From contig CAWCKY010000002.1 of NCBI GenBank assembly GCA_963796275.1, positions 128,001-192,000 of the forward strand: 64,000 bases of DNA, in the 5' to 3' direction. A program made the translations under genes and the position numbers. Every line of letters begins with the position of its first letter. Position 1 is the first letter of the stretch. This stretch comes from an uncultured Acidobacteriota bacterium (GTDB taxonomy: Bacteria > Acidobacteriota > Blastocatellia > RBC074). Positions 15,089 to 51,201 of the stretch are shown piece by piece. Below the pieces are notes generated by a model. That model was not told the origin of the DNA. It saw only the letters and a list, made by a program, of their open reading frames with translations, and did no database searches.

Positions 15089-15130
15089 CTTCTAGTAACC
15101 GTAAACTCAAACGATAGGCGCCCTAGTGAT

Positions 15131-18247: not shown

Positions 18248-18250
18248 ATA

Positions 18251-21300: not shown

Positions 21301-21711
21301 CGTGTCGGCCGGATTTGTTTTGCTGTAAATGGGCGGAGTAGGGAGATCAGCAGGCAGATAGGTCTGCGCCGCGTTGATCGCCGCCTGCACCTCTTGCGCT
21401 GCCACATCAATATTGATGTCGAGCGAAAACTGCAGAATGATGACGGAGCTGCCGCCCGAACTCGTCGACGTCATCTGATTCAGTCCCGGCAACTGCCCTA
21501 ATTGCCGTTCGAGCGGCGCGGTGACGCCGGTGGCCATGACATCGGGACTGGCCCCGGGAAAGAAAGTCAGGATTTGAATTGTGGGGTAGTCCACTTCGGG
21601 CAACGCCGAAACAGGCAGTTGCCTATATGCCACGATGCCGGCGAGCAGAATGGCCGCCATCAGCAGCGATGTCGCGACCGGCCGAAGGATGAACTGGCGA
21701 GAAGGACTCAC
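18313..21711 (-). CDS. mdtB: Multidrug RND permease MdtB with an Ala/Ser/Thr/Pro-rich insertion
   Basis: [18 protein letters not shown]; [15 protein letters not shown]; [18 protein letters not shown]. Low-complexity insert at about 19046-19390. Confidence 0.9.
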
Positions 21712-22943: not shown

Positions 22944-22984
22944 CTTCACAAAATTGAAGAGTGCGCAAATTAAGATGACTGGAA

Positions 22985-25602: not shown

Positions 25603-26615
25603 GTTACTTCCTCCACTCCGCCGATGGCGCGTTTCACCAGATTCCTCATCAGCGGGATCTTGTAAGCGTTGAACTGTAACGGGATTGCTCCCTGCACGGC
25701 TAGTCTCCCCGCCATCTCACCGGTCTCCGCGCTCGGCGGCTTGCCGCGAACTGCGTCTTCGACCGCCTTCAACCGCAGCGGACGAGCGGCCGCGCCGTTC
25801 ACCGCTATGCGGATTCGCTCGATCCTCTCTCCTGCTACCACCATGGCCGAGGCCACGTTCAACAAGGGAAAGTCCCACACGTTCCGGTCTCGCACTTTCT
25901 CAAAATAGAATTTCGCACCGTTCCCTGCGGACCATGTCGATGGAATCCTAATGGCTGTCAGAAGATCTCCCGGCTGCAAGATGTGCATTCGGGTGATGTC
26001 GATCTCCGGTCCGATGAAGTAGTCCTCGGCATCCACGACGCGCTCACCCTTCGGCGTCCGGATGGCGAATTTAGCGTCCAGTGCGATGAGTGCCGGAGCA
26101 GAATCGGACGGATTGACGGCCACGCAGCGGTCCGCGTGGAGAATCGCGTGCTCGCGGTTCCGGGCCGTCGGTGTGTCGGCATAGCAAATGTTCCCTCCGG
26201 CACGATAGCACGGCCAACCCGCCCGGTAATACCAGCAACGTGCGTCCTGCGACACATTGCCGCCGATCGTGCCCTGGTTCCTGATCTGCGGCGATGCTAC
26301 CAATTCCGCTCCCTGCGCCAGCAGACCGTAGTTTTGTTTGATGATCGGATTCTTCACCACTTCGGTGAGTGTGGTCATCGCGCCGATCTCGATGCCGTCA
26401 CGGGTTGTACGAACTCCCTTGAGTTCACCGATTCCGCTCAGATCGATCACCACCTTCGGTCTCTTGATACGATCCTTGAGCCAGTCGAAGCTATCCATCC
26501 CTCCGGCCAGTATCCAGGCATCTTGCCCATATTGTTCGAGAAGCTTCTGGGCATCAGCTACTGAGGCCGGTTGAAGCAGCTCGAAAGCGGGCATGACATC
26601 TCGTATTACAGCCAT
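25590..26615 (-). CDS. Xanthine dehydrogenase family FAD subunit (PaoB/YagS-like, with a 4Fe-4S Cys cluster)
   Basis: ILAGGMD; ASPQIRNQGTIGGN; RCWYYR..PCYRAGGNIC...CVAVNPSD; NAYKIPL. Confidence 0.9.
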   Translation of the reverse strand: MAVIRDVMPAFELLQPASVADAQKLLEQYGQDAWILAGGMDSFDWLKDRIKRPKVVIDLSGIGELKGVRTTRDGIEIGAMTTLTEVVKNPIIKQNYGLLAQGAELVASPQIRNQGTIGGNVSQDARCWYYRAGWPCYRAGGNICYADTPTARNREHAILHADRCVAVNPSDSAPALIALDAKFAIRTPKGERVVDAEDYFIGPEIDITRMHILQPGDLLTAIRIPSTWSAGNGAKFYFEKVRDRNVWDFPLLNVASAMVVAGERIERIRIAVNGAAARPLRLKAVEDAVRGKPPSAETGEMAGRLAVQGAIPLQFNAYKIPLMRNLVKRAIGGVEEVTWTS

Positions 26616-26632
26616 GGCTCTCCTCAGGAAAT

Positions 26633-26710
26633 ATTTTTCAGTTTTCAGTTTTCAGTTTTCAGTTGCCGATCGAGACATCCCAAATGAAAACTGAAACTGA
26701 AAACGGGAAA
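26633..26710. repeat. Palindromic element (TTTTCAG)n-spacer-(CTGAAAA)n, second copy
   Basis: atttttcagttttcagttttcagttttcagtt ... aaatgaaaactgaaactgaaaacgggaaa between the Mo and FAD subunit genes. Confidence 0.75.
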
Positions 26711-26712
26711 CT

Positions 26713-29223: not shown

Positions 29224-29869
29224 CGTTAGTCCTCCTCATTATCTCCGCGCCGCGCATTATCGCGGTGAGTATCTTGTCATAGTCCTGGCACCGGCAAAGG
29301 TTACCTGAAATGCCATGCGCCAATTCTGAGCGCGTGGGATTGGTGTTTGTTTTCAGGAACCCGACCGCCGACATAATGAAGCCCGACATACAGAATGCGC
29401 ACTGAAACCCTTGTTCCTCGACGATCCCCTGCTGCACCGGGTGCAGTGTTCCGTCGACGCGCGCCAGGCCCTCGATCGTCACAACTTTTCGGCCGCGCAC
29501 CGTGTGTGTGAGTATCGAGCACGAATAGTGGGGCACATCTTCAATGAGAACAGTACAGGCGCCGCATTCAGCGCGGTCGCAGCCGAGCTTGGTGCCAGTG
29601 AGGCCCAGCTTGTAACGCAGCGTCCACGCCAGCGTCTCTTGCTTCATAACATCGACTCGCCGCTGCTGGCCGTTGACGTTTACCGTGATCAGTCGCTCTC
29701 CTGCACCAGCGGCCGGTCTCTGGCCCGGTCCCTGGCTATGGATAAGAGTGGAGGCGCGGAACAGATAACTCGCTGAAGAAACTGCCGCGCCTCCAGCAAT
29801 GACCCCTTTGATGAAATTGCGTCTCGAAACTGACTTCGGAGTGTCATCGATTATCTTATCTGTCTTCAT
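29213..29869 (-). CDS. (2Fe-2S)-binding subunit with Tat signal (PaoA-like)
   Basis: SRRNFIK twin-arginine motif; GTKLGCDRAECGACTV; FQCAFCMSG; GNLCRC. Confidence 0.92.
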   Translation of the reverse strand: MKTDKIIDDTPKSVSRRNFIKGVIAGGAAVSSASYLFRASTLIHSQGPGQRPAAGAGERLITVNVNGQQRRVDVMKQETLAWTLRYKLGLTGTKLGCDRAECGACTVLIEDVPHYSCSILTHTVRGRKVVTIEGLARVDGTLHPVQQGIVEEQGFQCAFCMSGFIMSAVGFLKTNTNPTRSELAHGISGNLCRCQDYDKILTAIMRGAEIMRRTNGAG

Positions 29870-34032: not shown

Positions 34033-35718
34033 ATGCGAGTACTATATCTCGGAGTAGCAGTTTTGCTTTGTATTGGACTCGCGATGGCAGCATTCGACAA
34101 TGACAGTGGCGACCAAACATCGAACGGTCCCGCAGGTTGGCGAATTGCCGGACGCGATCCGGACAACTCCAGAAATCAGCCGTCGGAGCGGCATATAAGT
34201 GCTGCGAATGTGCATCAACTCGTCGCCAAGTGGGTGTTTACGACTGGAAGCGATGTATCAGCCACTCCAACGGTCGCCGGAAACACAGTCTATTTTCCGG
34301 ATTGGGCTGGAAACTTATACGCGGTTCGGGCCGACAATGGAGACCTCCTCTGGTCGCGGAAGATATCCGACTACAACGGCAGGGCGGGAAGCATGTCGCG
34401 TGTCAGTCCGGCGATTTTCGAGGACTTGTTGATTATCGGCGACCACACAGGAGTAGGATGGCTCTCCGATGACGCGCCACTAGTTGGACATAACGGCGCG
34501 CATGTAATCGCCGTCGACCGCCACAGCGGTGAGTTACGCTGGATTACAAAAGTCGAATCGCATCCATCCGCGCTCATCACAGGATCGCCGGTCTTCTATG
34601 GGACCACAGTCTATGTGGGCGTCTCATCGGAGGAGGAGACGCTCGCCGTGAATCCCGCATATCCGTGTTGCACGTTTCGCGGGAGCATGGTGGCGCTGGA
34701 CATCTTCACCGGAGCGATGTTGTGGAAGACCTACACAGTGCCAGATAACGAAGGTCGGACGGATCGCTACAGCGGCAATGCGATATGGTCGCCGCCCGCA
34801 ATCGATCCCAGCCGTGGATCTCTATACATCGGCATTGGAAACAACTACACCGTACCGGATGATGTCCTGCAGTGTCAGGAGGAGGCGATCGAGACCGGCA
34901 ATCCAAACCCAAACTGTTCCGTGCCGGATAACTACTTCGACACTGTATGGGCGCTGGATTTGACGACTGGCGCGATCAAATGGGCGCGCAGGTTATCAGG
35001 CTTCGACGTCTGGACGGTGGCCTGTGTCTCATTGCCACCCGGCGTGAACTGCCCTTCGCCTCACGGATCCGACTTCGATTTCCCCGGCTCAGGCCCGAAC
35101 CTGCTGCACGTGCGCGACAATGGGCAACACGGACGCGATCGGCAGGCCGGGCATGCGGGAGAACACGATAGAGATCTCGTCGGCATAGGACAAAAGAGCG
35201 GGATGTACTGGGCGCTCAATCCCGACAACGGCGAGGTCGTCTGGAGCACCGTAGTCGGCCCCGGCGGCACCACCGGAGGCATTCAATGGGGTACGGCGAC
35301 TGATGGGACCCGCATCTACGTGGCGATTACAAACAGTCAGCACATGACCTACACGCTCGCGAACAATGGTCCCACGATCGACTGGGGCTCGTGGGCAGCT
35401 CTCGATCCACGGACTGGCAGAATTCTGTGGCAGGTCCCAGATCCGACGCCGGGCGCAATCGACCCCGGCGCGGTGAGCGTCGCAAATGGTGTCTTATATG
35501 CTGGGTCATACTCCGGAGCGATGTACGCGCTCGACGCGCGGACTGGAAATCTCCTTTTCACCTTCGACAGTGGCGGCTCGGTAATCGATGCTCCGTCAAT
35601 TGTGAATGGAACCGTGTATTGGGGCTCCGGATACCGAAACATTGCGCCTGGTATCGGCAACAATAAAGTGTATGCCTTCACCCTTCCGAAGGCCGGAACG
35701 TCAGTTGATTCCAAATAG
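34033..35718 (+). CDS. Secreted PQQ-binding beta-propeller protein, polyvinyl alcohol dehydrogenase-like, no heme c domain
   Basis: Signal peptide; KWVFTTGSDVSATP; vicinal CCTFRGS; IWSPPAID; GQKSGMYWAL; GGIQWG. No CxxCH. Confidence 0.82.
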   Translation: MRVLYLGVAVLLCIGLAMAAFDNDSGDQTSNGPAGWRIAGRDPDNSRNQPSERHISAANVHQLVAKWVFTTGSDVSATPTVAGNTVYFPDWAGNLYAVRADNGDLLWSRKISDYNGRAGSMSRVSPAIFEDLLIIGDHTGVGWLSDDAPLVGHNGAHVIAVDRHSGELRWITKVESHPSALITGSPVFYGTTVYVGVSSEEETLAVNPAYPCCTFRGSMVALDIFTGAMLWKTYTVPDNEGRTDRYSGNAIWSPPAIDPSRGSLYIGIGNNYTVPDDVLQCQEEAIETGNPNPNCSVPDNYFDTVWALDLTTGAIKWARRLSGFDVWTVACVSLPPGVNCPSPHGSDFDFPGSGPNLLHVRDNGQHGRDRQAGHAGEHDRDLVGIGQKSGMYWALNPDNGEVVWSTVVGPGGTTGGIQWGTATDGTRIYVAITNSQHMTYTLANNGPTIDWGSWAALDPRTGRILWQVPDPTPGAIDPGAVSVANGVLYAGSYSGAMYALDARTGNLLFTFDSGGSVIDAPSIVNGTVYWGSGYRNIAPGIGNNKVYAFTLPKAGTSVDSK

Positions 35719-39706: not shown

Positions 39707-40034
39707 TCACAACGCCCCAGTTCGCACGATGCAAAATGCCTCGTAACGACTGCCACCAAAAATACAATATACTTCCCGACTTTCCCGATCATCGGCGCCC
39801 TCCTCCTCTTCGACCACAGGAAGTACGCCCGGCAAGCGGCCCTCGAATCAGAGCACGCGCATCTCATTTGGGAACCCATCGTTGCCCCGAATACGACGTC
39901 ATCGAGCTGCGCCAATTGCTCGAGCAAAATGGCAAATGCTTGCCCCGGATCCAAGTCGCACTATTTTTAGAAGTAAAGATTTTGTATATCTTGCATGTGA
40001 TTGATGTAGTGCGCGGCGCTCACAGTTGAATGCC

Positions 40035-40997
40035 ATGAACGAGGAACTCAACTCTGTCTGTAACTTCGCCACGGGGCTGCGATTCGAGCCTTACGGCATT
40101 GACCATCTGGTGGATGCCATTGGCCATCACCGCCTGCCGCTGGACCCGGAGTTTCCTTTCACCATCAAAGCCTTCTTCTACGAATCCTTCTCGCCCGGCG
40201 AACGGCTGACCTGGCACAACCGGCTGGAACTTTTCTGTCCCGTCAGCGGCTCCGGCAGCTTTCAGATGGGCGAGCGAGTCATTGACTTCAAGAACGGCGA
40301 TCTGCTGGTGGTGGACAATTTGAAGCTGCACGGCGCGCGCAGTTTTGCAGGCCCACGGAGCCAGGCGGCGGTCATCTACTTCCGGGGGGAATTGTTTTAT
40401 AATCTCGGCTCGGCTGTTTGCGATTACGCTTATCTGACGCCGTTCTACGGCCTGTCCGAAACGATTTCTCCGGTGCTACGCGCCGCTGATCCTGCAGCAG
40501 CGGCAGTCCACGAGGCCTTAGGCAAAATGATCCGCTGTTATTTCGAGGCTCCCGCCGACCAGTATTCGCGTATCGGCTGCAAAGCCTATCTGTCGGAAAT
40601 CCTCTACCTGTTGTCGAAGCATTTCGGCGCGTCGGATCTGGCGCGGGCTGAATACGTGCGCCGCCGTGAACAGGCGCGGCGGCTGGGTGCGCTGGTGGAA
40701 TACCTGAACACCAACTATGCTGAAAAGATTGCCGTCCCGCAGGCTGCGGCAATGGTCGGCATGAGCCAATCCACATTCAACCGCTTTTTCAAGCAAGCCG
40801 CCGGAATGACCTTCGTGGATTACCTGACGCATTTGCGCGTGACCAAAGCTCGCCAGATGTTACGCGACCAGAGCCTGAGCATCGCCGAAATTTCCAACCT
40901 GGTGGGCTACACCGATCAGAGCTATTTCGATAAACGCTTCAAGGAACATTTCGGTAAATCGCCGCGCGAATGCCGGGAAATGACAAAATCGTCGTAG
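40035..40997 (+). CDS. AraC family transcriptional regulator (cupin + dual HTH)
   Basis: WHNRLEL cupin motif; FNRFFKQAAGMTFVDYLTHLRV; VGYTDQSYFDKRFKEHFGKSP. Confidence 0.92.
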   Translation: MNEELNSVCNFATGLRFEPYGIDHLVDAIGHHRLPLDPEFPFTIKAFFYESFSPGERLTWHNRLELFCPVSGSGSFQMGERVIDFKNGDLLVVDNLKLHGARSFAGPRSQAAVIYFRGELFYNLGSAVCDYAYLTPFYGLSETISPVLRAADPAAAAVHEALGKMIRCYFEAPADQYSRIGCKAYLSEILYLLSKHFGASDLARAEYVRRREQARRLGALVEYLNTNYAEKIAVPQAAAMVGMSQSTFNRFFKQAAGMTFVDYLTHLRVTKARQMLRDQSLSIAEISNLVGYTDQSYFDKRFKEHFGKSPRECREMTKSS

Positions 40998-41172
40998 AAA
41001 AAAGCAAAATCTTTCTAGCCGCGATTGCCTCTCGCCCTCAATACTCGGCCTCATCAAAAATGCGCAGCGAATTCGCAAGCGTCAGCTGGCGCGCATAAAT
41101 TCCGCATGCGCATCTCTCGAACTGTCAGCGGCAGTTGCGGCTGAACCAAGCAAACCTGAATAGGAGATAACC

Positions 41173-44100
41173 ATGAGTATCAGAATCGCCGCAGTCCATC
41201 GGCTTGTCGCCGTTCTTTACGCACTCTGCCTACTCGCTTCGCTCGCATGGGCGCAATCCACCGGCGGCGCGCAGCTTTCCGGCACGGTGCTGGACGAAAG
41301 CGGCGGTGCCGTCGCGGGCGCGGAAGTCACGGTCACGCAAACCGCCACCGGGGGCTCGCGCACCGTCACGACCGATGCCGACGGGAGCTATACCTTCCCC
41401 AATCTGCCGGTCGGGCCCTATCAATTGCAGGTCAGGAAGCAGGGCTTCAGCGCTCACCTGCAAACTGGCATTGTTTTGCAGGTCAACGTCAACCCGACGA
41501 TCAATGCGACGCTCAAAGTCGGCGCGGTGACGGAACAGGTGCAGGTGACTTCGGATGCCGCGCTGGTCGAAACGCATAGCAACGGCGTAGGCCAGGTGAT
41601 TGATCAGCAGCGCGTTGTCGAATTGCCGCTCAACGGGCGGGTGGCGACCGAATTGATTTTCCTTTCGGGCCTGGCGACGGCGGCTCCGGTGGGGGATTTG
41701 AATACGAATAAAAACTATCCGACCGTCACCATCTCAGTCGCGGGCGGACTGGCGAACGGGATGACGTATGTGATGGACGGCGGCACGCATAACGACCCGT
41801 TCAATAACCTCAATCTGCCGATGCCCTTCCCTGACGCCTTGCAAGAATTCAAGGCCGAGACCAGCGCCCTGCCGGCGCGCTACGGCCATCATGCCGCGTC
41901 GACCGTCAACATCGTCACTAAATCGGGGACGAATAAATTTCATGGCGACTTGTTCGAGTTCGTGCGCAATTACAAATTCAACGCGCGGAACTTCTTTGCC
42001 GCGCAACGCGATAGTCTGAAACGCAATCAGTTCGGCGGGACGCTGGGCGGCCCGATCAGACAGAACAAGCTGTTTTTCTTCGGCGGCTATCAGGGGAAGA
42101 TAGAGAAATCGAATCCGGGCACGACCATCAGTTATGCGCCGACGGCGGCGATGCGCGCGGGTGATTTCACGGCATTCGCGTCGGCGGCCTGCAACGGCGG
42201 CGCGGCGCGCACGCTGGCTGCGCCCTTCGTCGACAACAGGCTCGATCAGTCGATGATCAATCAGCAGTCCTTGAACTTTTTGAACTACGTGCCCACGCCG
42301 ACCGACGCTTGCGGCAGGTTGCAATACGGCATTCTTGCCAACAACAACGAGCATCAGGCGATCGGCAAAATTGACTATTCGCTCAACGACAGGCACACGT
42401 TGTTCGGTCGTTACTTCTTTGCCGATTATGCCAGTCCCAATCCGTTTGACGGCGTGAACGTATTAGCCATGAGCCGCGTCGCCCAATTCAATCGTGCGCA
42501 TTCATTCGTGCTGGGCGATACCTATCTGCTCAGCGCAAACACGATCCTCTCGACGCGCGCGACGCTCAACCGCACGCGCAATCTTCGCGTAGTTGATCCG
42601 TACTTTTCGCCCGCCGATCTGGGTATTCAGGTCTACAGCCCGGTCACAGGTTTCACCGGCTTCACGGTCACTGGCAACGGATTTGCGATTGGCGCTGTCG
42701 CGACAAATCCCGGCTATTTCAATTCGACGAATTATCAGCTTGCCGAAGACGTTGATCTGATTCGTGGCTCGCATCAGATATCCCTGGGCGTAAATTTCAT
42801 TCACAACAACATCAACACCTCGAACAATCGACCGACCAATGGGCAATTTACTTTCAACGGCCAGGTGACGGGCTTGCCGATGGCGGATTTCATGGCGGGC
42901 ATTCTAAGCGGCGGGTTCTTGCAGGGCAATCCGATCTTTGACAACCAACGGCAGAATTACATCGGCGTTTACGTGCAGGATTCGTGGAAGCTGAATCCTC
43001 GGCTGACGATCAACGGAGGCGTACGCTGGGAGCCCTACCTGCCGATGGAACATCCATTCGGCTGGGTGAGCCACTTCGATCAGGCGGCTTTCGTCGCGGG
43101 CGCAAAGAGCGCGGTCTATAAAAACGCGCCAGCCGGATTGCGCTTCCCCGGCGACGCCGGCTATCCGGGGAAGTCGACAACATTCTCGCGCAAAGCGCAA
43201 TTTGCGCCGCGTCTGGGACTGGTCTTCGATCCGAAAGGCGACGGCAAGATGACGGTGCGCGCATCCTACGGCATTTTCTATGACAACCCGCATCTATTCT
43301 TCAACACGCGTTTTGCGAACAATCCGCCATGGGGCGCGCAGATCACACTCACTAATCCGGCGGGCGGTTTGACCAACCCCTATCAAACATACCCCGGCGG
43401 CAATCCTTTCCCCGGGCTGGCCAATATCTCCGCGGACAGCTTCTTCCCTTTGGCGGGGGTTTATGTCAACGCGCCGCTCGAGATCAAGCCGACTTACCTG
43501 CAGCAGTGGAATCTGAGCGTGCAGCGCCAGGTCGGCGAATGGCTTTTTGCGGGCACCTATCTCGGCAACAAATCCACGCACCTATGGACGGGACGCGAAG
43601 CGAACCCGGCGGTCTTCGGTGCGGGGGCGACGCTGGGCAATACCAATCAACGCCGCGTGCTTTCCCTGCTGAATCAAATGCAGGGGCAGTATTACGGCAC
43701 CATCGGACAGATTGATGACGGCGGCACGTCGAGTTACAACGGCATGCTGCTGTCGGCGCAGCGCCGCCTGGCGAACAGCTTCAGCGTGCTGGCGAATTAC
43801 ACTCTGTCGCATTGCATCAGCGATCCGGCGACGACCGAAATCACCGGCCCGACATACGTCAATCCCAACAATCGCCGCGCTGACCGGGCGAATTGCGATT
43901 CGGACCGGCGCCACGTCGTCAATCTTTCGTTTGTCGCGCGCACGCCGCGATTTGCTAATCGCGCGCTGAACCTGATCGCTTCGGGCTGGCAGCTTTCGGG
44001 CATCGTGCGCCGGCAAAGCGGGAACTATTCAACAGTCATGACCGGCGTGGACAACGCGCTCACAGGCGTCGTCGGCCAACGCGCTGTGCAGCTGCTGGCC

Positions 44101-44418
44101 GTTCCTTACGACGCGAGCCCGACAGTGGATCATTATTTGAATCGTGCGGCGTTCGGTTCACCCACGATGGGAACGTATAGCTCGCTCGGCGCATTCACGA
44201 TTGTGAATCCGAGCACCCTGCAGATTGATACGGGACTGTCGCGCACCTTCCGCGTGTTCGAAGGGCAAAGCATTCAGTTCCGTTGGGAACTCTTCAACGT
44301 CCCGAACCGGCTGAATGCGAATGCGCCGGTTACCGCACTGAACGATGCGAACTTCGGCAGGATTCTGAGCGCGCAAGACCCGCGTATTATGCAGTTTGCG
44401 CTGAAGTACGTGTTTTAG
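41173..44418 (+). CDS. TonB-dependent receptor, Oar/Acidobacteria type, with a carboxypeptidase-regulatory-like N-domain
   Basis: Signal peptide; GTVLDESGGAVAGAEVT; LPLNGR; KSGTNKFHGDLFEF; RNQFGGTLGGP; YVQDSWK; PRIMQFALKYVF end. Confidence 0.92.
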   Translation: MSIRIAAVHRLVAVLYALCLLASLAWAQSTGGAQLSGTVLDESGGAVAGAEVTVTQTATGGSRTVTTDADGSYTFPNLPVGPYQLQVRKQGFSAHLQTGIVLQVNVNPTINATLKVGAVTEQVQVTSDAALVETHSNGVGQVIDQQRVVELPLNGRVATELIFLSGLATAAPVGDLNTNKNYPTVTISVAGGLANGMTYVMDGGTHNDPFNNLNLPMPFPDALQEFKAETSALPARYGHHAASTVNIVTKSGTNKFHGDLFEFVRNYKFNARNFFAAQRDSLKRNQFGGTLGGPIRQNKLFFFGGYQGKIEKSNPGTTISYAPTAAMRAGDFTAFASAACNGGAARTLAAPFVDNRLDQSMINQQSLNFLNYVPTPTDACGRLQYGILANNNEHQAIGKIDYSLNDRHTLFGRYFFADYASPNPFDGVNVLAMSRVAQFNRAHSFVLGDTYLLSANTILSTRATLNRTRNLRVVDPYFSPADLGIQVYSPVTGFTGFTVTGNGFAIGAVATNPGYFNSTNYQLAEDVDLIRGSHQISLGVNFIHNNINTSNNRPTNGQFTFNGQVTGLPMADFMAGILSGGFLQGNPIFDNQRQNYIGVYVQDSWKLNPRLTINGGVRWEPYLPMEHPFGWVSHFDQAAFVAGAKSAVYKNAPAGLRFPGDAGYPGKSTTFSRKAQFAPRLGLVFDPKGDGKMTVRASYGIFYDNPHLFFNTRFANNPPWGAQITLTNPAGGLTNPYQTYPGGNPFPGLANISADSFFPLAGVYVNAPLEIKPTYLQQWNLSVQRQVGEWLFAGTYLGNKSTHLWTGREANPAVFGAGATLGNTNQRRVLSLLNQMQGQYYGTIGQIDDGGTSSYNGMLLSAQRRLANSFSVLANYTLSHCISDPATTEITGPTYVNPNNRRADRANCDSDRRHVVNLSFVARTPRFANRALNLIASGWQLSGIVRRQSGNYSTVMTGVDNALTGVVGQRAVQLLAVPYDASPTVDHYLNRAAFGSPTMGTYSSLGAFTIVNPSTLQIDTGLSRTFRVFEGQSIQFRWELFNVPNRLNANAPVTALNDANFGRILSAQDPRIMQFALKYVF

Positions 44419-44428
44419 TTCGCACCGC

Positions 44429-44511
44429 ATCAGTATCGCGAGCAGTGGCGAGCGTGGCTCCTGCAAAAGGCTACTAACGGAAGCCACGTTCGCCGAGCTC
44501 GCGGTACTGAT
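44429..44511. repeat. REP-like inverted repeat
   Basis: ATCAGTATCGCGAGCAGTGGCGAGCGTGGCT ... AGCCACGTTCGCCGAGCTCGCGGTACTGAT between the receptor gene and the next gene. Confidence 0.75.
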
Positions 44512-44531
44512 TCACTGCTTCATTCAAACCT

Positions 44532-45419
44532 ATGTCGACTCAACACAACCGCGAAGCCATTGCCGACGCCACCAACCCGTTGGGGCTGGACGGCATCGAG
44601 TACATCGAATATGCGACCAGCAAGCCGCAGGCCCTGGGGCAGGTTCTGGAGATGATGGGCTTTCGTCCGATCGCGCAGCATCGTTCCCGCGAAGTAATGC
44701 TTTATCGGCAAGGCCGGATGAACGTCATAGTCAACGCCCATGTAAGCGCCTTGCCGCGTGCCGTGCAGCCGGTTGAAACACCTGCGATTTCGGCGCTGGC
44801 CTTGCGCGTGCGTTCGGCAGCGGCGGCCTATCATCACGTCATTGAAAAAGGCGCATGGGCCGCGCCGACGCACGTGGAAGTGATGGAATTGAACATCCCC
44901 GCGATTCACGGAGCAGGCAACAGCCGCATCTATTTTGTTGATCGTTACCACGATTTTTCAATCTACGACGTTGATTTCACACTGATCCCGACCGTCGATC
45001 CGCATCCGACTGCGCTTGCGGGAATGCATTTGTTCGGCATCGTGCAATACATCGGTACGGAGCGAATGGAAGATTGGACGGAGTTTTATACGATGCTCTT
45101 TGCTTTCCAACTATTGCCGGACAACGAACGCTTCGGCATTCTGCACCAAGGCCGAGTCCTGCGCAGTCCCTGCGGTTCGTTTTACCTGCAACTGATCGGC
45201 CCCGATTCTGATATCGGCAACGTGGAGGGGGACGAATTACTGCAGCGGGTCGGCTTCGGCGTGCCCGACGTGCCCGACGCCATCGCCGCCTTGCGCGCGC
45301 GCGGCATCAGCTTCGTCTCCGCCAGCGACCACCAGACAAACGCACACGGCGCGTTGACTCAAAGTTATCTGGGCGGCTTGATGTTCGAGATTGTTCACGA
45401 CGAGCGTAACGGCATATGA
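44532..45419 (+). CDS. HppD-like (VOC) protein lacking the metal-binding histidines
   Basis: NPLGLDGIEYIEY, HRSREVMLYRQG, MELNIPAIHGAGNSRIYFVDR. The usual DH and IQHIA sites read FGIVQY and LQRVG. Confidence 0.8.
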   Translation: MSTQHNREAIADATNPLGLDGIEYIEYATSKPQALGQVLEMMGFRPIAQHRSREVMLYRQGRMNVIVNAHVSALPRAVQPVETPAISALALRVRSAAAAYHHVIEKGAWAAPTHVEVMELNIPAIHGAGNSRIYFVDRYHDFSIYDVDFTLIPTVDPHPTALAGMHLFGIVQYIGTERMEDWTEFYTMLFAFQLLPDNERFGILHQGRVLRSPCGSFYLQLIGPDSDIGNVEGDELLQRVGFGVPDVPDAIAALRARGISFVSASDHQTNAHGALTQSYLGGLMFEIVHDERNGI

Positions 45420-46327
45420 AACAGTTCAGCAGCAGCATCGACGATTTTGGGATGGATACAATTACGCTCACCGGGCCATTGCCCGCCAAGTTACAGGCTG
45501 TGCGCGCTGCCGGGTTCTCCCAAATCATGTTGCTGGCGCGCGATATTGTGGGCCACGATGCGGGCGTCGAAGCGGCTATCCGCGCCGTGCGCGAAAGCGG
45601 TTTGCGCGTGACGGGCTTTCAGGTGCTGCGCGATTTTGAAGGGCTGTCCGGCCACTTGCACGAATACAAAATTGATGTAGCGAAATCCATGCTGGAAATG
45701 TGCGGGGCGCTCGGCGCGCGCGTGTTGCTGGTCTGTTCATCGATTTCGACCCACGCGACGGACGACCGAGATGCGCTCGCGCGCGATTTGCGCAAGCTGG
45801 CGATGCTGGCCGTGCCGCTCGGCATCAGGATCGCTTACGAAGGATTGTCGTGGGGGCGCACGATCAACGAATTTCATGACGCCTGGGATATCGTTTGCCG
45901 CGCAAACGCGCCGAATCTCGGCATTGGGATTGATTCGTTTCACATCTTCGCCACGAAAACGCCGCTCGATAAGCTGGATGCGCTCGACCCGAAAAAGATT
46001 TTCCTCGTGCAGTTGGCCGATTTTATGTGGAACGAAATTCGTTCGGTCGAGGAGCGCATCACCACGGCGCGCCACTTCCGCGTCTTTCCCGGCGAAGGCG
46101 TGCATAGCGATCAAGTTGCCGAGTTAGTGATGCGTCTTGACAAACTGGGCTATCGCGGCGATTACAGCTTCGAGGTCTTCAACGACGATTACCAGCAAAT
46201 GCCGATGGACCGCGTCTGCGCGCGCGCCTTCCGCGCGGCGGAATGGTTGGGTGAAGATGTGCTGCGACGCTCCGTGCCGCTGCCCAATCGCATGCGGCTC
46301 AAATCCAGTGAACCGTTATCCCCTTAA
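45416..46327 (+). CDS. 3-dehydroshikimate dehydratase-like TIM barrel (QuiC1/QsuB N-domain, AP endonuclease 2 fold)
   Basis: FQVLRDFEG, YEGLSWG, DSFH, VQLAD, RHFRVFPGEG, FEVFND. ATGA overlap with the HppD-like gene. Confidence 0.8.
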   Translation: MKQFSSSIDDFGMDTITLTGPLPAKLQAVRAAGFSQIMLLARDIVGHDAGVEAAIRAVRESGLRVTGFQVLRDFEGLSGHLHEYKIDVAKSMLEMCGALGARVLLVCSSISTHATDDRDALARDLRKLAMLAVPLGIRIAYEGLSWGRTINEFHDAWDIVCRANAPNLGIGIDSFHIFATKTPLDKLDALDPKKIFLVQLADFMWNEIRSVEERITTARHFRVFPGEGVHSDQVAELVMRLDKLGYRGDYSFEVFNDDYQQMPMDRVCARAFRAAEWLGEDVLRRSVPLPNRMRLKSSEPLSP

Positions 46328-46473
46328 AGAAAGAAGGCAAAGGAGTCAAAACCTAGCTGCTCATTGTTCCTGACGTCGGGGGCAAGGTTACCCGAAGCTA
46401 CTCACGCCGATACTGATCAGGCGCTCAAGAAAACGCTCGAATTCATCGAGGCCATTGAGGGAGGGATGGCGAA

Positions 46474-48390
46474 ATGAAACGACGGCTTTTATTGTTGGTT
46501 ATTGCTATCGGCTTGTTGCTCCCGTCCGTGCGGGGACAGAAGAGAACGGCAACCGACTGGCCGACTTTCGGCAATGATCACGGCGGACAGCGTTACGCTC
46601 CGCTAACGCAGATCAACGCCGACAACGTAACGAAGCTCGTGCGCGCGTGGACATATCACATGAAACCCGCCGGCGCCGCGCCGCCCATCGCCGAAAGCCG
46701 CCCATCCGCGCGCGGCCCGCGTCGCCGCGGCAATCCAGAATCGCAAGCCGTGCCGCTAGTGGTCAACGGTGTGATGTATCTGACGACGGCTTATCGCCGC
46801 GTCGTCGCGCTCGAACCCGAAACGGGCAAGTGCCTGTGGGAATACATGCTCAAGAGCGGCTCGCCTGCCACGCGAGGTTTGGAGTACTGGGCGGGGGATG
46901 CGCAAACGCCGCCGCGCTTGTTCTTCGGCACGTCCAACGGCGAACTGATCGCACTCGATGCCAGGACGGGACAGCCTGCGACGAGCTTCGGCGCGGGCGG
47001 CATCGTGGATATGAAAATCGGGGTGATGAATGGTTACGATCAGATTCCTTATGGTCTGTCGTCGCCGCCGATTATGTACAAAAGCCTCGTGATCACGGGC
47101 GCGCATACACAGGAGTCACCGATGCTGGGTTCTTCGGGCGACGTGCGCGCTTGGGATGCGCGGACGGGCAAGCTGGTCTGGACGTTTCACACAGTGCCGC
47201 GTCCAGGCGAAGCGGGGCACGGGACATGGGAAGGCGACAGTTGGAAAGACCGTTCCGGCGCGAATGTCTGGAGTATGATGACCGTTGACGTAGCGCGCGG
47301 CCTGGTTTTTCTGCCGCTCGGTTCGCCGACATACGATTATTACGGCGGCGACCGCAAAGGCGCGAACCTTTACGGCGACACGCTGGTTGCGCTCGATGCC
47401 AACACCGGCCAAATGAAATGGCATTTCCAAGCCGTGCATCATGACTTGTGGGATTATGATCTTTGCACGCCGCCAACTTTGTTTGATGCCACGGTCAAAG
47501 GCCGAAAGATTCCGGCTGTGGCGGTGATGTCGAAAATGGGTCTGCTCTTCATTCTGGATCGCAGCGACGGCAATCCGATTTATGGCATCGAGGAAAGACC
47601 GATTCCAAAAACTGACGTGCCTGGCGAAGCGAGCTGGCCCACGCAACCCTTTCCGCTCAAGCCAGCGGCGCTCGCGCGCAACAGCTTCAAGCGCGAAGAA
47701 CTCGCCAATCTGACGCCTGAACACCGCAAATATTGCGAAGCAATGTTCGACCGCGACGGGGGCATGCACAACGAAGGGCCGTACACGCATTACACTACCA
47801 AACCTTCGGTCGTCTTCCCCGGCACGCTCGGCGGCGGCAATTGGAATCCGATGTCGTTCGATCCGAAGCTGGGCTACCTGTTCATCAACACACAGGATTT
47901 GGGCGGCATCGGACAGATGCAGCGGAATCTTGAAGGTGGGCGCACGCCGTGGTCACGCACGAGTCCGCTGGGGCCGGCCGGCCGATTCTGGAATCCCGAT
48001 ACGCGCTGGCCTTGCCAGCAACCGCCCTGGGGCAGATTGTTCGCGGTCAATGTCAATACCGGCGAAATCGTCTGGCAAGCCGTGTTGGGAATTACGGAAG
48101 GATTGCCTGAGGACCAGCAAAAAACCGGCAGGCCGAATATCGGCGGCTCGCTCGCCACGGCCAGCGGATTGGTCTTCATCGGTGCGACCGATGACAGCCG
48201 CTTCCGTGCCTTCGACGCCAAGACCGGGAAGGAATTATGGGTGACGAAAATTGACGCGGGCGCGCATTCCGCGCCGATCACATACTATGGTAGAGACGGC
48301 AAGCAATACGTGGTGATTACGGCAACCGGTGGCGGCTTCATCGCAGACCCTTCAAGCGCCGACACGGTGATTGCGTTTGCCTTGCCGTAA
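46474..48390 (+). CDS. Secreted PQQ-dependent dehydrogenase (glucose/quinate/shikimate family), no N-terminal membrane anchor
   Basis: Signal peptide; RYAPLTQINADNV; GANVWSMMTVD; YYGGDRKGANLY; HHDLWDYD; FPGTLGGGNW; PCQQPPWG; GKQYVVI. Confidence 0.88.
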   Translation: MKRRLLLLVIAIGLLLPSVRGQKRTATDWPTFGNDHGGQRYAPLTQINADNVTKLVRAWTYHMKPAGAAPPIAESRPSARGPRRRGNPESQAVPLVVNGVMYLTTAYRRVVALEPETGKCLWEYMLKSGSPATRGLEYWAGDAQTPPRLFFGTSNGELIALDARTGQPATSFGAGGIVDMKIGVMNGYDQIPYGLSSPPIMYKSLVITGAHTQESPMLGSSGDVRAWDARTGKLVWTFHTVPRPGEAGHGTWEGDSWKDRSGANVWSMMTVDVARGLVFLPLGSPTYDYYGGDRKGANLYGDTLVALDANTGQMKWHFQAVHHDLWDYDLCTPPTLFDATVKGRKIPAVAVMSKMGLLFILDRSDGNPIYGIEERPIPKTDVPGEASWPTQPFPLKPAALARNSFKREELANLTPEHRKYCEAMFDRDGGMHNEGPYTHYTTKPSVVFPGTLGGGNWNPMSFDPKLGYLFINTQDLGGIGQMQRNLEGGRTPWSRTSPLGPAGRFWNPDTRWPCQQPPWGRLFAVNVNTGEIVWQAVLGITEGLPEDQQKTGRPNIGGSLATASGLVFIGATDDSRFRAFDAKTGKELWVTKIDAGAHSAPITYYGRDGKQYVVITATGGGFIADPSSADTVIAFALP

Positions 48391-48413
48391 CCTCTGACTT
48401 TCAAAGACCCATT

Positions 48414-48989
48414 ATGAACTCTATCAGAATTCTTCTGCTCGCGGCGTTACTCGGCATGCCGATGCTCGCTTCCGATGTTCAATCAAAGATGCAAAACAAC
48501 CAAAATGCGCGGTTGAAAATCCTGGTCGTTCACGGCCCGAATCTGAACCTGCTCGGAAGGCGCGAGCCGAATATTTACGGCGTGACGACGCTACCGCAAA
48601 TCAACGAGCAGTTGCAGAAACTGGCGGCGGAACTGAATGTCGAGCTGATCATCGTGCAATCCAATCACGAAGGCGTCATCGTGGACACGTTCCAACAACA
48701 CATTGATGATGTGGCCGGCGCGATTATCAACCCGGCAGGGCTGAGCTTTCACAGTGTTGCATTGCACGACGTCATCAAAGCGGTGCCGTTTCCAGTGATC
48801 GAAACGCACATCTCTAACCTCGGCACGCGTGATGCGATCCACCAGGGTTCGATCATCACGCCCGCGGCGCGGGCTTCGATTATGGGGCTGGGCTGGCGAT
48901 CTTACACGGCGGGCTTGCGCGCGCTGGTCGAGCTTGTACGCGAAGAAAAAAACGCCAAGGAAGTGGGAAAAGAAGGGAGTAAGAAGTGA
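48414..48989 (+). CDS. aroQ: Type II 3-dehydroquinate dehydratase with an N-terminal signal peptide
   Basis: HGPNLNLLGRREPNIYG, QSNHEG, IINPAG, ETHISN, preceded by MNSIRILLLAALLGMPMLA. Confidence 0.9.
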   Translation: MNSIRILLLAALLGMPMLASDVQSKMQNNQNARLKILVVHGPNLNLLGRREPNIYGVTTLPQINEQLQKLAAELNVELIIVQSNHEGVIVDTFQQHIDDVAGAIINPAGLSFHSVALHDVIKAVPFPVIETHISNLGTRDAIHQGSIITPAARASIMGLGWRSYTAGLRALVELVREEKNAKEVGKEGSKK

Positions 48990-49846
48990 TGCGTTACCTG
49001 ATTTGTCTGTTTGCGATTGTTTTACTGTTCAGCCTGTCGCCGGCGCAATCGGCCCAACAAGCTCCGCCGCAACGTCGGCCACAGCCGCGTCCTACGCGCA
49101 AACAGGTGTTGGCGTGGGGCGATGTGCGTTACGGCTTCCAACACGATTCCGTCTCGCACGCGATGGCTACGATTGAACGTCTGGGCCGCGAATCGGGTAT
49201 GTACGATACGTACATCCGCACCGATTCGCAGCTCATCACGAAACAGCCGATTATAACGGGTGGCCGTCCCAGCAATGCCAAAAATCTGAATTACTTCGAC
49301 GCTATCTTCTTTTTCGGGCTGCGCGAAATTGAGCTGAGCGCCCAGCAAAAGGTCGACCTGATGACTTTCATCAAAGAGGACGGCAAGGGATTCGTCGGCG
49401 CGCACACGGCGACGACCGCGTTTTTCTCGTGGCCGGAGTTCGGCGAAATGATCGGCGCGCGCTTTGACGAACATCCCTGGAATGTCATTGACGGAAGCGT
49501 CGTGATTGACGACCCGCTGTTTCCCGCCATGAAGCATTTCCCCGGCGTTTCGGTCATCAAGGACGAGCATTACCAGCACAAGGATTTTGCGCGCGATAAA
49601 ATCCGCGTGCTGGCGCATCTGGATGTGAGCAATTTGGATATGAAAAATCCTCGCGTCCATCGAACCGACGGCGACTATCCCGTCGCCTGGTCGAAGATGC
49701 ACGGCAAAGGCCGCGTCTTTTACGCCACGCTCGGACACGCGCCGGAAAGCTGGGACAACCCGCAAATCCAGAAAATGTATTTCGAGGCGCTCAAATGGGC
49801 CATGGGCTTGAGCGAAGGTGAGACCACACCGCTCCCGGGAAAGTGA
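48986..49846 (+). CDS. Secreted ThuA-like (class I glutamine amidotransferase-like fold) protein
   Basis: Signal peptide; FQHDS; GKGFVGAHTA; FDEHPW; DEHY; GKGRVFYATLGH. Confidence 0.85.
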   Translation: MMRYLICLFAIVLLFSLSPAQSAQQAPPQRRPQPRPTRKQVLAWGDVRYGFQHDSVSHAMATIERLGRESGMYDTYIRTDSQLITKQPIITGGRPSNAKNLNYFDAIFFFGLREIELSAQQKVDLMTFIKEDGKGFVGAHTATTAFFSWPEFGEMIGARFDEHPWNVIDGSVVIDDPLFPAMKHFPGVSVIKDEHYQHKDFARDKIRVLAHLDVSNLDMKNPRVHRTDGDYPVAWSKMHGKGRVFYATLGHAPESWDNPQIQKMYFEALKWAMGLSEGETTPLPGK

Positions 49847-50334
49847 TGCGTAAGGTCATCAAAATTGCCTTAGCGGCAATCGCCATCTCCGTCGGAATTC
49901 TGGCGCAAACGCCCGAAACGCCGAAGCAGCCGCTACCATTCAGCCACAAGCTGCACGTCGCGCAGGGGCTGAATTGCCAAACCTGCCACGTCAATCCCGA
50001 CCCCGGCGAACAGATGGCCTTTCCGGCGACGGCCGAATGCATGACCTGTCACGCCGAGATCGCCACGGACAAAGCCGCGATCCAGGAACTCGCCAAATAT
50101 CATCAGGACAAAGCCGCTATCCCGTGGGTGCGGATTTATCAAAACCCCGACTGGGTCTGGTTCAGTCACCGCGTACATTTGGAGGCGGGTGCGAAATGTG
50201 AGCGCTGTCACGGCGCGGTCGCCGAGCGCGACGCGCTCTGGAAAGAGAAGCCACTCACGATGGAAAGCTGCATGAATTGCCACCGCGAAACCAACGCCAG
50301 CAACGCATGCAATTATTGCCATCAAGCGCATTGA
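49843..50334 (+). CDS. Pentaheme cytochrome c (c3/ActA/QrcA-like)
   Basis: Signal peptide; five CxxCH motifs (CQTCH, CMTCH, CERCH, CMNCH, CNYCH); PFSHKLH and FSHRVH distal ligands. Confidence 0.9.
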   Translation: MMRKVIKIALAAIAISVGILAQTPETPKQPLPFSHKLHVAQGLNCQTCHVNPDPGEQMAFPATAECMTCHAEIATDKAAIQELAKYHQDKAAIPWVRIYQNPDWVWFSHRVHLEAGAKCERCHGAVAERDALWKEKPLTMESCMNCHRETNASNACNYCHQAH

Positions 50335-50343
50335 AGTCGTGGT

Positions 50344-51201
50344 ATGGAAAAACACTTTCCCAAATCGTTGCAGGTTGGTTTAATCGGCGCAGGCATTCAG
50401 GCTTCGCGCTCGCCACATCTCCACGAATGCGAGGCCCGCGCGGCAGGCATCGTCTGCTCCTATCGATTGATCGATCTGGTGCAACTCGGCGTCGGCGTCG
50501 AATCCTTGCCGCAGCTGCTGGACGCTGTCCAGCAGCAGGGATTCGCCGGAGTCAATATCACACATCCCTGCAAACAATCGGTCATTCCGCTGCTAGACGA
50601 ACTGTCGGAGGATGCCACCATCATCGGTGCGGTCAACACGGTGGTTTTTTCCGCAGGCAAACGAATCGGGCACAATACCGATTGCTGGGGGTTTGCCGAA
50701 AGTTTCCGGCGAGGCCTTGCCGATGTTGCACGCAACCAAGTAGTCCTGCTCGGCGCGGGCGGCGCGGGATCCGCCGTAGCCAGCGCCGCACTACAAGTCG
50801 GTGTCACAAGGTTGGTGATTCACGATGTGATTTATTCGCGCGCCATTGCGCTTGCCGAACGATTGCGCCCACGTTTTGGCGCGGATCGCATCGCCATCGT
50901 CACTGACCTCTCGTCGGCAATGGCCGCGGCTGATGGATTGATTCAAGCGACACCCATCGGTATGCTCGGCCATCCTGGATTGCCGTTGCCCATTGAATTG
51001 CTGCGGCCTGCACATTGGGTCGCCGAGATCATTTACTTTCCGCTCGAGACAGAATTGCTGAAGTTAGCGCGCCTGCTGGGTTGCCGCACACTGGACGGTA
51101 GCGGAATGGTTGTCTTTCAGGCCGCCGAAGCGTTCCGCCTATTTACTGGCGTGGCGCCGGATTACGAAAGGATGCTGAGATGTTTCGCCATCCTGAGCTA
51201 A
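50344..51201 (+). CDS. Shikimate/quinate dehydrogenase (AroE family, QsuD/YdiB-like)
   Basis: SRSPHLH, GVNITHPCK, GAVNT, GHNTD, GAGGAG. An Asp (IHDV) replaces the NR motif of NADP-dependent AroE. Confidence 0.88.
   Translation: MEKHFPKSLQVGLIGAGIQASRSPHLHECEARAAGIVCSYRLIDLVQLGVGVESLPQLLDAVQQQGFAGVNITHPCKQSVIPLLDELSEDATIIGAVNTVVFSAGKRIGHNTDCWGFAESFRRGLADVARNQVVLLGAGGAGSAVASAALQVGVTRLVIHDVIYSRAIALAERLRPRFGADRIAIVTDLSSAMAAADGLIQATPIGMLGHPGLPLPIELLRPAHWVAEIIYFPLETELLKLARLLGCRTLDGSGMVVFQAAEAFRLFTGVAPDYERMLRCFAILS

Follow-up and report, generated by a model that had tools for sequence, protein, structure and literature searches.

The question raised by the locus described here is what purpose is served by nine co-oriented genes in which enzyme families of hydroaromatic catabolism stand together with a TonB-dependent receptor, a soluble pyrroloquinoline quinone (PQQ) dehydrogenase, a ThuA-like protein and a multihaem cytochrome. 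The genes lie on the + strand at 40026–51201 of the window, a 64,000-nt stretch of the genome of an uncultured Acidobacteriota bacterium (G000; assembly 9.46 Mb, 94.7% complete, with contigs numbered C1, C2 and so on). The answer favoured here, and held to be reasonably probable, is that the locus serves the utilisation of hydroaromatic compounds (quinate, probably also shikimate) and that its first two steps take place in the periplasm. Four of the nine genes belong to the enzyme families of the Corynebacterium qsu and Pseudomonas qui pathways: the dehydroshikimate dehydratase barrel and its HPPD-like half, the type II dehydroquinase and the QsuD-like dehydrogenase. Quinate utilisation had been proposed in an earlier note on the same DNA, and the proposal was supported in part; the identity of the substrate, the electron path and export are inferred from sequence and context, as are the importer and the whole part given to ThuA.

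The proteins of the window were assigned to families by Pfam and NCBIfam profile searches, which gave for every gene of the locus the same family as the earlier note had named:

40026–40997, + strand: AraC-family regulator (HTH_18, 86.8 bits, and a weak AraC_binding match); TTG start, in-frame ATG at 40035
41173–44418, + strand: TonB-dependent outer-membrane receptor of the acidobacterial CarboxypepD_reg plus OMP_b-brl_4 type (PF25183, 650.5 bits; PF13620, 80.8 bits); signal peptide
44532–45419, + strand: HPPD-like protein, the counterpart of the C-terminal domain in dehydroshikimate dehydratases that have two domains; no signal peptide
45416–46327, + strand: catalytic TIM barrel of a 3-dehydroshikimate dehydratase, of the N-terminal domain type of QuiC1/QsuB; no signal peptide
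46474–48390, + strand: soluble PQQ dehydrogenase of the glucose/quinate/shikimate family (PF01011, 656.7 bits); signal peptide
48414–48989, + strand: type II 3-dehydroquinate dehydratase, AroQ (PF01220, 156.6 bits versus 23.3; NF003807, 163.7 versus a cut-off of 130)
48986–49846, + strand: ThuA-like protein, predicted to be exported (PF06283, 131.1 bits versus 33.4); signal peptide
49843–50334, + strand: pentahaem c-type cytochrome, ActA-related and standing alone, with five CXXCH motifs; signal peptide; presumed electron acceptor
50344–51201, + strand: quinate/shikimate dehydrogenase of the QsuD type, predicted cytoplasmic (NF009201, 428.6 bits versus a cut-off of 235)

All nine open reading frames (ORFs) were found where the earlier note had placed them, and the overlapping stop and start codons that it described are present at three junctions, as ATGA between the HPPD-like gene and the barrel and as GTGATG both between AroQ and ThuA and between ThuA and the cytochrome. 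The latter two junctions (48976–48998 and 49833–49855) carry an identical 11-nt string, AAGTGATGCGT; in each GTGATG the stop TGA is embedded and there are two candidate starts. The locus had been said to start at 40035, where there is indeed an in-frame ATG, but the AraC ORF begins at 40026 with TTG. The distal gaps are short, with 23 nt from the PQQ dehydrogenase to AroQ and 9 nt from the cytochrome to the AroE-family gene, and three wider ones, of 175, 113 and 146 nt upstream of the receptor, HPPD-like and PQQ dehydrogenase genes, respectively, suggest up to three transcription units. Five of the nine products (receptor, PQQ dehydrogenase, AroQ, ThuA and cytochrome) have the basic, hydrophobic and small-residue succession of a signal peptide at their N-termini, in agreement with the number given before, and the other four (AraC, HPPD-like protein, barrel and AroE-family protein) have no such N-terminus. 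The ratio of nonsynonymous to synonymous substitutions (Ka/Ks) was 0.07–0.25 for each of the nine genes in comparison to the related loci L119, L123, L124 and L013, indicating purifying selection. Since the arrangement also recurs in related contigs, it is not a product of chance.

The recurrence was followed in loci on other genomes and metagenome contigs, which are designated by L-numbers (L010, L011 and L195 being other regions of G000). When metagenomes were scanned with AroQ, 13 contigs had an AroQ of at least 80% identity and six had one of 65–74%; to the counts L013, from an Acidobacteriota metagenome-assembled genome, was added, and only contigs reaching far enough were included. The PQQ dehydrogenase preceded AroQ in 10 of 10 loci, ThuA followed AroQ in 14 of 14 (AroQ of at least 80% identity), the cytochrome followed ThuA in 13 of 13, and the AroE-family gene followed the cytochrome in 12 of 13, the exception being L013. 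The dehydratase pair preceded the PQQ dehydrogenase in four of nine loci, and the receptor was present in seven of the nine loci reaching far enough upstream, in addition to a truncated copy in L013. The complete nine-gene order was found in L116, L119 and L123. The co-conservation implied by the earlier reading thus extends to every related contig that reaches far enough (10–14 contigs), and because of these counts the conserved unit is taken to be the PQQ dehydrogenase, AroQ, ThuA and the cytochrome, usually together with AroE.

The receptor, the regulator, the dehydratase pair and the esterases found in relatives are exchangeable modules. In L124, an exported BD-FAE-type esterase (6640–7680) occupies the position of the dehydratase pair, and a 69-residue HPPD-like remnant of 62% identity lies nearby, which suggests replacement of a module. 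Upstream of the unit in L013 there are a BD-FAE-type esterase, a tannase/feruloyl-esterase domain and a transporter of the major facilitator superfamily (MFS), and another exported alpha/beta hydrolase follows AroE in L115, L116, L117 and L122, the last of which also has an MFS gene there. Within the group with 65–74% identical AroQ, only L133 keeps ThuA (50%), and in L125 and L127 AroQ is found in other contexts. All genomes and contigs found to carry the unit belong to close relatives, and its distribution is therefore narrow. A scan with the PQQ dehydrogenase, using one genome per species and considering, as in each of the locus scans, the best 80 (here of 598 relatives), found AroQ, ThuA and the cytochrome together with it only in L013, the PQQ dehydrogenase of which is 82% identical.

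The PQQ dehydrogenase matched only positions 150–783 of TIGR03074, the profile for the full-length membrane-bound form, with 486.4 bits in relation to a cut-off of 832.65. It is 32% identical to residues 167–792 of E. coli Gcd and has a signal peptide in place of the N-terminal membrane domain. At the positions of Gcd D466, K493 and D730, which we take to be catalytic or PQQ-site residues, it has identical residues, and pqqB, pqqC and pqqE are present in G000 above their cut-offs. The soluble PQQ enzyme of the earlier note is therefore supported as a family assignment: it has a signal peptide and no Gcd membrane domain, the three residues are kept and cofactor genes are present. The segment around the D466 equivalent (residues 322–329, window 47439–47462) reads HHDLWDYD and is invariant in the 34 aligned homologues except for L325, which is conserved in at least 90%; a second Asp stands two residues past the first, as in E. 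coli Gcd. Other PQQ-type genes were also observed. Region L011 of the genome (C4:366000–385000) contains a 732-aa paralogue with a cytochrome c domain (c551/c550-like, residues 498–566) inside the propeller sequence, and about 5 kb from it a ThuA paralogue (194 bits) beside a xylose-isomerase-like barrel, together with an MFS gene. In the window, a 561-aa PQQ-like beta-propeller with weak scores (PF01011, 65 bits; PQQ_2, 124 bits) is encoded 4 kb upstream of the locus (34033–35718, + strand).

The enzyme core of AroQ begins at residue 34–35, leaving an N-terminal extension of about 33 aa that resembles a signal peptide. The extension has this character in 16 loci with at least 65% identity and an intact N-terminus, even as its sequence diverges; among homologues at most 57% identical, a signal-peptide-like extension was seen, doubtfully, in L162 only. 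Since L116, L119, L122, L123, L124 and L127 have no internal Met between extension and core, the extension must be translated in them. The export of AroQ claimed earlier is hence predicted here too, from a conserved signal-peptide-like extension and the lack of an alternative start in several orthologues. The motifs GPNLNLLGRREPNIYG, QSNHEG and IETHISN align with the solved enzymes and contain what we take to be the catalytic residues, that is the lid Arg/Tyr, the Asn of SNHEG and the Glu, His and Ser of E-x-H-x-S-N. Because these motifs are kept and two presumed contact positions are changed (see below), activity as a dehydroquinase is likely but not certain.

The dehydratase is present as two genes. 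The barrel matched positions 5–267 of NF042435 (QuiC) with 171.4 bits and residues 8–270 of P. putida QuiC1 (5hmq; E 2.9e-44), with the common motifs YE.L.WG, DSFH, VQ.AD and E.FND. The HPPD-like protein matched positions 288–498 of the same profile with 86 bits and residues 294–499 of 5hmq. Its best matches are true HPPDs (9qmf, 1cjx), which have 357–361 aa in comparison to its 295 aa; the gene is single-copy in G000, and its stop overlaps the next start by 4 nt. What the earlier note listed as an HppD-like protein and a separate barrel was thus correct as to families, but the two are halves of one enzyme type with two domains, QuiC1/QsuB, here divided between two genes in reversed order. The single polypeptide of that type, with the barrel first, is absent from the locus, where the HPPD-like ORF comes first and the scores of 171 and 86 bits compare with an NF042435 cut-off of 1200. 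In QsuB, activity resides in the N-terminal domain and the C-terminal domain was proposed to help oligomerisation, according to PMC7442255. At E ≤ 1e-25 the barrel was found in one of the 401 sampled Acidobacteriota genomes, G000 itself.

The AroE-family protein has as its best solved relative the quinate/shikimate dehydrogenase of C. glutamicum (3jyo, 258 bits), while chains named shikimate dehydrogenase reached at most 140 bits. It scored below the equivalog NF010631 (276 versus 515) and is 34% identical to the housekeeping AroE domain. By sequence it is closer to the catabolic quinate/shikimate dehydrogenase than to biosynthetic AroE.

The five CXXCH motifs that make the cytochrome pentahaem, as previously noted, are kept without exception in the 19 aligned homologues. 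Among solved structures, its closest relatives are ActA subunits of Alternative Complex III (8k9e, 3.9e-30; 6f0k, 6lod, 6btm), and the two paralogues in G000 are ActA genes in complete act operons (C2, near 208 kb and 668 kb). Homologues of the cytochrome (37–47%) directly follow homologues of the PQQ dehydrogenase (39–50%) in five further loci of the 80 (L038, L040, L043, L049 and L075), all without ThuA. The transfer of electrons from the PQQ enzyme to the cytochrome, as earlier suggested, is consistent with these pairs; the path itself is read from gene context.

ThuA orthologues (46–57%) were found at E ≤ 1e-40 in 35 of the 401 Acidobacteriota genomes, G000 included, mostly outside its class, and the family comprises 6873 proteins at E ≤ 1e-10. 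A PQQ dehydrogenase homologue (46–54%) is adjacent in three of 29 ThuA loci (L200, L201 and L208) and weaker PQQ propellers in three more; Gfo/Idh/MocA oxidoreductases, xylose-isomerase-like barrels and other cytochromes are adjacent in two each. A fixed ThuA–cytochrome pair was ruled out, as this cytochrome had no homologue within approximately 1.5 kb of ThuA in any of the 29 loci in other Acidobacteriota. Because of these separate neighbourhoods (5/80 and 0/29), ThuA and the cytochrome each appear tied to the dehydrogenase family and not to each other. The ThuA model (pLDDT, the predicted local distance difference test, 85) matched 4pxy, 4jqs and 1t0b in Foldseek at probability 1.00, and the fold search yielded nothing beyond uncharacterised ThuA-like entries and generic proteins with an amidotransferase fold. 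H53, D80, H140, H163, D193, E194, D213 and H251 are invariant in the alignment. We know of no member of the ThuA family with a known function. A complex prediction of the PQQ dehydrogenase and the cytochrome with ThuA as partner scored 0.00, a value obtained without controls that speaks neither way.

Orthologues of the AraC regulator (76–93% identical) stand upstream of the receptor in L116 (where the gene is cut), L118, L119, L123 and L124, with Ka/Ks of 0.10–0.13. Receptor orthologues of 80–93% identity are present in L116–L120, L123 and L124, and the truncated copy of L013 is 71% identical; in G000, the best paralogue among 169 places resembling TonB-dependent receptors is about 30% identical. 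The label "PUL-like" (polysaccharide utilisation locus) of the earlier note fits loosely, since no SusD-like product is found among the nine, and the receptor scored 19.7 bits with the SusC model in relation to a cut-off of 368; the SusC/SusD pair of the Bacteroidota type is thus absent. Plant esters, which had also been named as possible substrates of the receptor, are hinted at by the exported esterases in the loci of relatives, but G000 does not have those esterases.

Since the dehydratase halves have no signal peptide, an importer for dehydroshikimate would be needed. In agreement with what had been reported earlier, no inner-membrane transporter and no ring-cleavage gene was found in the locus, nor elsewhere in the window by the profile scans. 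The MFS proteins of L122 and L013 (85% alike) have their best match in G000 (61%) at C7:563626–564993, where the neighbours are a TonB-dependent receptor, a quinohaemoprotein and a regulator combining an HTH with a shikimate-kinase-like domain; this MFS protein is a candidate importer, nothing more. The surrounding region L195 (C7:555000–573000) contains the receptor, the MFS gene, the regulator (NF006015, 209 bits versus 204) and a divergent quinohaemoprotein PQQ dehydrogenase, and may be a second uptake locus for hydroaromatic or aromatic compounds.

According to the proposed mechanism, quinate would enter through the dedicated TonB-dependent receptor, or as an ester that is hydrolysed in the relatives carrying esterases, and would be oxidised in the periplasm to 3-dehydroquinate by the soluble PQQ dehydrogenase. 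The electrons would pass to the stand-alone ActA-like pentahaem cytochrome and on to an aerobic respiratory chain. The exported AroQ would then convert 3-dehydroquinate to 3-dehydroshikimate, still in the periplasm, and a transporter encoded elsewhere would import the product, which the cytoplasmic split dehydratase of the QuiC1/QsuB type would aromatise to protocatechuate. The QsuD-like NAD(P) dehydrogenase may handle imported shikimate or link dehydroshikimate to shikimate, and the exported ThuA-like protein would be a fixed member of the periplasmic block.

Several observations weigh against this mechanism. The PQQ dehydrogenase is only a presumed quinate dehydrogenase, the enzyme being known from its sequence and its substrate taken from the neighbouring genes, and the counterparts of Gcd H262 and H775 are not kept. 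Outside the clade, its closest relatives (36–66% identity) had no quinate genes nearby in 79 of the 80 genome loci, and a tblastn search of plasmids gave no match named quinate dehydrogenase, the best match being an unnamed Sphingobium PQQ dehydrogenase of 47% identity. AroQ falls below the cut-off of the equivalog TIGR01088 (150 versus 169.85). The His of "THT" is replaced in it by Phe (SFHS) and the Arg of "FR" by His (RDAIH), two positions which, in type II enzymes of solved structure, we take to contact the substrate on the C4/C5 side of its ring, and the pattern SF[TH]S / RD.xH was seen in none of the top solved-structure matches. The signal peptides were called by eye and from hydropathy, without a dedicated predictor, and the promoter and terminator scans gave numbers at the level of chance (7 versus 6.1 expected and 14 versus 15.4). 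The dehydratase pair is missing from five of the nine related loci (L117, L118, L122, L124 and L013), and no importer for dehydroshikimate is present in the locus.

The fate of the product is a further point of the same kind. No pcaB was found above the cut-off in G000, nor a complete protocatechuate pathway. As to other pca and lig genes, the genome has a lone intradiol dioxygenase with weak PcaH/PcaG scores and a single LigB-family enzyme. The LigB-family protein (435 aa, fused) is encoded in region L010 (C4:918000–937000) in a cluster with a LigK-type aldolase (334.8 bits versus 179), a PIG-L-family protein, a short-chain dehydrogenase/reductase, DUF6282, a GntR-type regulator and a TonB-dependent receptor, which looks more like the gal (gallate) genes of P. 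putida than like a protocatechuate 4,5 pathway. The intradiol dioxygenase, on C3, was rejected as PcaHG (121 bits versus 296, no partner subunit, no pcaB).

The altered AroQ pattern also occurs beyond the exported clade, in a wider set of non-exported homologues. Those examined sit in accessory contexts, and two of seven follow genes of tripartite ATP-independent periplasmic (TRAP) transporters; in the metagenome contigs L151 and L156 such an AroQ comes directly after DctP and DctM genes, in a non-housekeeping context. A catabolic subclass of type II dehydroquinases may be recognisable by this motif.

The missing dehydratase pair and the failure to find a complete protocatechuate pathway are also the points that favour a combination of respiration and salvage, which is regarded as unlikely. 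According to this explanation, quinate is oxidised for energy in the periplasm and imported 3-dehydroshikimate is reduced by the AroE paralogue to shikimate for the aromatic amino acids, protocatechuate being optional. Four of the five loci without the dehydratase pair keep AroE, and L124 retains merely the HPPD-like remnant; for A. baylyi, passages of PMC4213383 propose that catabolic dehydroquinate or dehydroshikimate leaks into aromatic biosynthesis. Yet in the window both dehydratase halves are intact (Ka/Ks 0.12–0.19), the nearest relative of the AroE paralogue is the catabolic enzyme of Corynebacterium, and G000 already has a complete-looking AroD–AroE fusion.

A second explanation, improbable to a somewhat greater degree, divides the locus into two unrelated units, a cassette of PQQ dehydrogenase, ThuA and cytochrome for the oxidation of sugars or polyols and a cytoplasmic qsu-type pathway in which the AroQ extension is no export signal. 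The neighbourhoods of the ThuA orthologues elsewhere, with PQQ dehydrogenases, Gfo/Idh/MocA oxidoreductases and xylose-isomerase-like barrels and no quinate genes, agree with such a division, as does the lack of AroQ near the closest relatives of the PQQ dehydrogenase. The position of AroQ argues against it: the gene lies inside the block, 23 nt after the PQQ dehydrogenase and overlapping ThuA, and this place is kept in every related contig reaching far enough. Its hydrophobic N-terminus is conserved in character and cannot be skipped in several orthologues, and a qsu pathway in the cytoplasm would depend on a dehydroquinase located there, for which only the housekeeping type I enzyme is left.

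That the periplasmic block is an elimination-based acyl-quinate system, in which oxidation at C3 would activate the loss of the C1 hydroxyl and the C5 acyl group and ThuA would be a lyase-type enzyme, is judged very unlikely; if true, it would provide the first function for an exported ThuA and the first substrate for the widespread soluble PQQ/ThuA/cytochrome cassettes of soil bacteria. Hardly any probability is given to acyl-quinates such as chlorogenic acid being the substrate, with C3 oxidation by the PQQ dehydrogenase making the C5 acyl a beta leaving group to be eliminated by ThuA or the variant AroQ. The receptor points to something larger than free quinate, or less plentiful, as the substrate, but such receptors are a general uptake route in G000, with the 169 places mentioned. 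AroQ is altered at two presumed contacts on the C4/C5 side, but homologues that are not exported and are encoded in unrelated neighbourhoods have the same motif. The invariant His, Asp and Glu residues of ThuA would suit a catalytic or metal site, and ThuA proteins accompany enzymes making 3-keto sugars, according to passages of PMC8121099. The exported esterases in the loci of relatives, however, point to ordinary hydrolysis, and the elimination chemistry is our own proposal, without direct evidence.

The earlier note had allowed that biosynthesis would be implied if these were the only aroQ and aroE genes of the genome. A separate type I dehydroquinase fused to shikimate dehydrogenase (AroD–AroE) is encoded at C1:425345–426829 in one 528-codon frame. 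That the locus genes are the biosynthetic ones, as the locus AroQ being the only type II dehydroquinase of G000 might suggest, is next to impossible in view of this fusion, of the occurrence of type II enzymes at E ≤ 1e-10 in just 22 of 401 sampled Acidobacteriota genomes (G000 included; best non-self identity 44%) and in none of those sampled from its class or family, of the predicted export signal of AroQ and of the QsuD type of AroE. Because of the fusion, the rarity of type II enzymes, the barrel in one of 401 genomes and the presence of pqqB, pqqC and pqqE, the locus is considered an accessory, lineage-specific acquisition. It is catabolic or serves salvage, and is not biosynthetic.

A search of sequencing runs found no RNA run containing the window and only small shares of it (at most 0.12), in soil and rhizosphere metagenomes. 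Four runs gave contigs from relatives, approximately 90–95% alike to the window. One run labelled RNA-Seq, for which RNA is a guess, gave a 1398-nt contig from the PQQ dehydrogenase into AroQ (47300–48698) and a 606-nt contig over the ThuA/cytochrome junction; contigs of this kind cannot show a transcript.

Elsewhere in the window, the − strand encodes at 24724–29869 a molybdenum hydroxylase of the xanthine dehydrogenase family, made up of three subunits (2Fe-2S, Mo-binding and FAD), and after it a cytochrome b561-type membrane protein. At 13583–22988 the same strand carries an RND efflux operon, which encodes two AcrB-type pumps in a row (1132 and 1043 aa) as well as a membrane-fusion protein and an outer-membrane factor. 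A third AcrB-type gene is located at 1666–4827.

Quinate, shikimate and hydroxycinnamoyl esters are a major plant-derived carbon source in soil and rhizosphere, where Acidobacteriota are abundant and metabolically poorly understood. Among the 401 sampled Acidobacteriota genomes the hydroaromatic pathway is rare, the barrel having been found in one and a type II dehydroquinase of any sort in 22. Soil genomes commonly encode soluble mGDH-family PQQ dehydrogenases together with ThuA-like proteins and cytochromes, and these dehydrogenases have no known substrate. Because its neighbours name a likely substrate, the locus is a practical entry point for the PQQ enzyme, its cytochrome partner and ThuA. 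If hydroaromatic utilisation with a periplasmic start is the correct explanation, the locus would offer a natural example both of a type II dehydroquinase that acts outside the cytoplasm and of an ActA-like cytochrome that stands alone and serves a dehydrogenase.

A close functional comparison is to the qui system of Acinetobacter, in which QuiB is presumably a type I dehydroquinase and QuiX presumably porin-like. Unlike QuiB, the exported dehydroquinase of the locus is of type II, a TonB-dependent receptor is present where QuiX stands in Acinetobacter, and ThuA and the QsuD-like dehydrogenase are additional. Periplasmic conversion of quinate is not new in itself, as passages of PMC4213383 describe how A. 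baylyi ADP1 converts quinate to protocatechuate in the periplasm by QuiA, QuiB and QuiC; there, likewise, a PQQ-dependent quinate dehydrogenase is followed by a dehydroquinase in the periplasm. The earlier note knew of no described locus with this layout, and in open-access papers and bioRxiv no description was found. QuiA is reported to reduce ubiquinone (PMC4213383), whereas the PQQ dehydrogenase of the locus has no membrane domain and is accompanied by the pentahaem cytochrome. The QuiC step is periplasmic according to the same passages, and the locus dehydratase is split, of the QuiC1/QsuB type and without a signal peptide. Since neither half begins with a segment resembling a signal peptide, the periplasm can host no more than the first two steps of the locus, in comparison to all three in Acinetobacter.

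The quinate dehydrogenase of Gluconobacter is reportedly membrane-bound, and its dehydroquinase has, we assume, a periplasmic or membrane location. In acetic acid bacteria, passages of PMC9171043 and PMC8102297 describe how a PQQ enzyme that does not depend on NAD(P) oxidises quinate to 3-dehydroquinate and how a type II dehydroquinase converts the latter to 3-dehydroshikimate, the same two-step sequence of PQQ enzyme and type II AroQ as in the locus. As far as those passages show, Gluconobacter has no receptor, ThuA or multihaem cytochrome in this system, whereas the locus has all three.

The Corynebacterium qsu and Pseudomonas QuiC1 pathways are cytoplasmic and have an MFS importer. In the locus the dehydratase consists of two genes in swapped order, the dehydroquinase is predicted to be exported, and the PQQ/cytochrome branch is additional. 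The families shared with C. glutamicum qsuABCD and P. putida QuiC1 are the barrel plus HPPD-like dehydratase, the type II dehydroquinase and the NAD-type quinate/shikimate dehydrogenase (PMC7442255).

With ActA of Alternative Complex III, the cytochrome shares five haem motifs in the same order and clear homology. It differs in lying outside an act operon (the neighbours are ThuA and AroE, with no ActB–F), in its length (163 aa versus 219–229 aa) and in having a short signal-peptide-like N-terminus and not a long hydrophobic anchor. The locus ThuA is of the same Pfam family and fold as ThuA of the ThuAB trehalose 3-dehydrogenase system, 4jqs, 4e5v and 1t0b, and in ThuAB, too, it stands beside a dehydrogenase giving a 3-keto product (PMC8121099); it is predicted to be exported and its partner is a PQQ propeller, in contrast to the Gfo/Idh/MocA enzyme of ThuAB. 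What appears to distinguish the locus from the known systems is thus the combination of a soluble dehydrogenase with its own multihaem cytochrome, a putatively exported type II dehydroquinase, a split dehydratase predicted to be cytoplasmic, a TonB-dependent receptor and ThuA.

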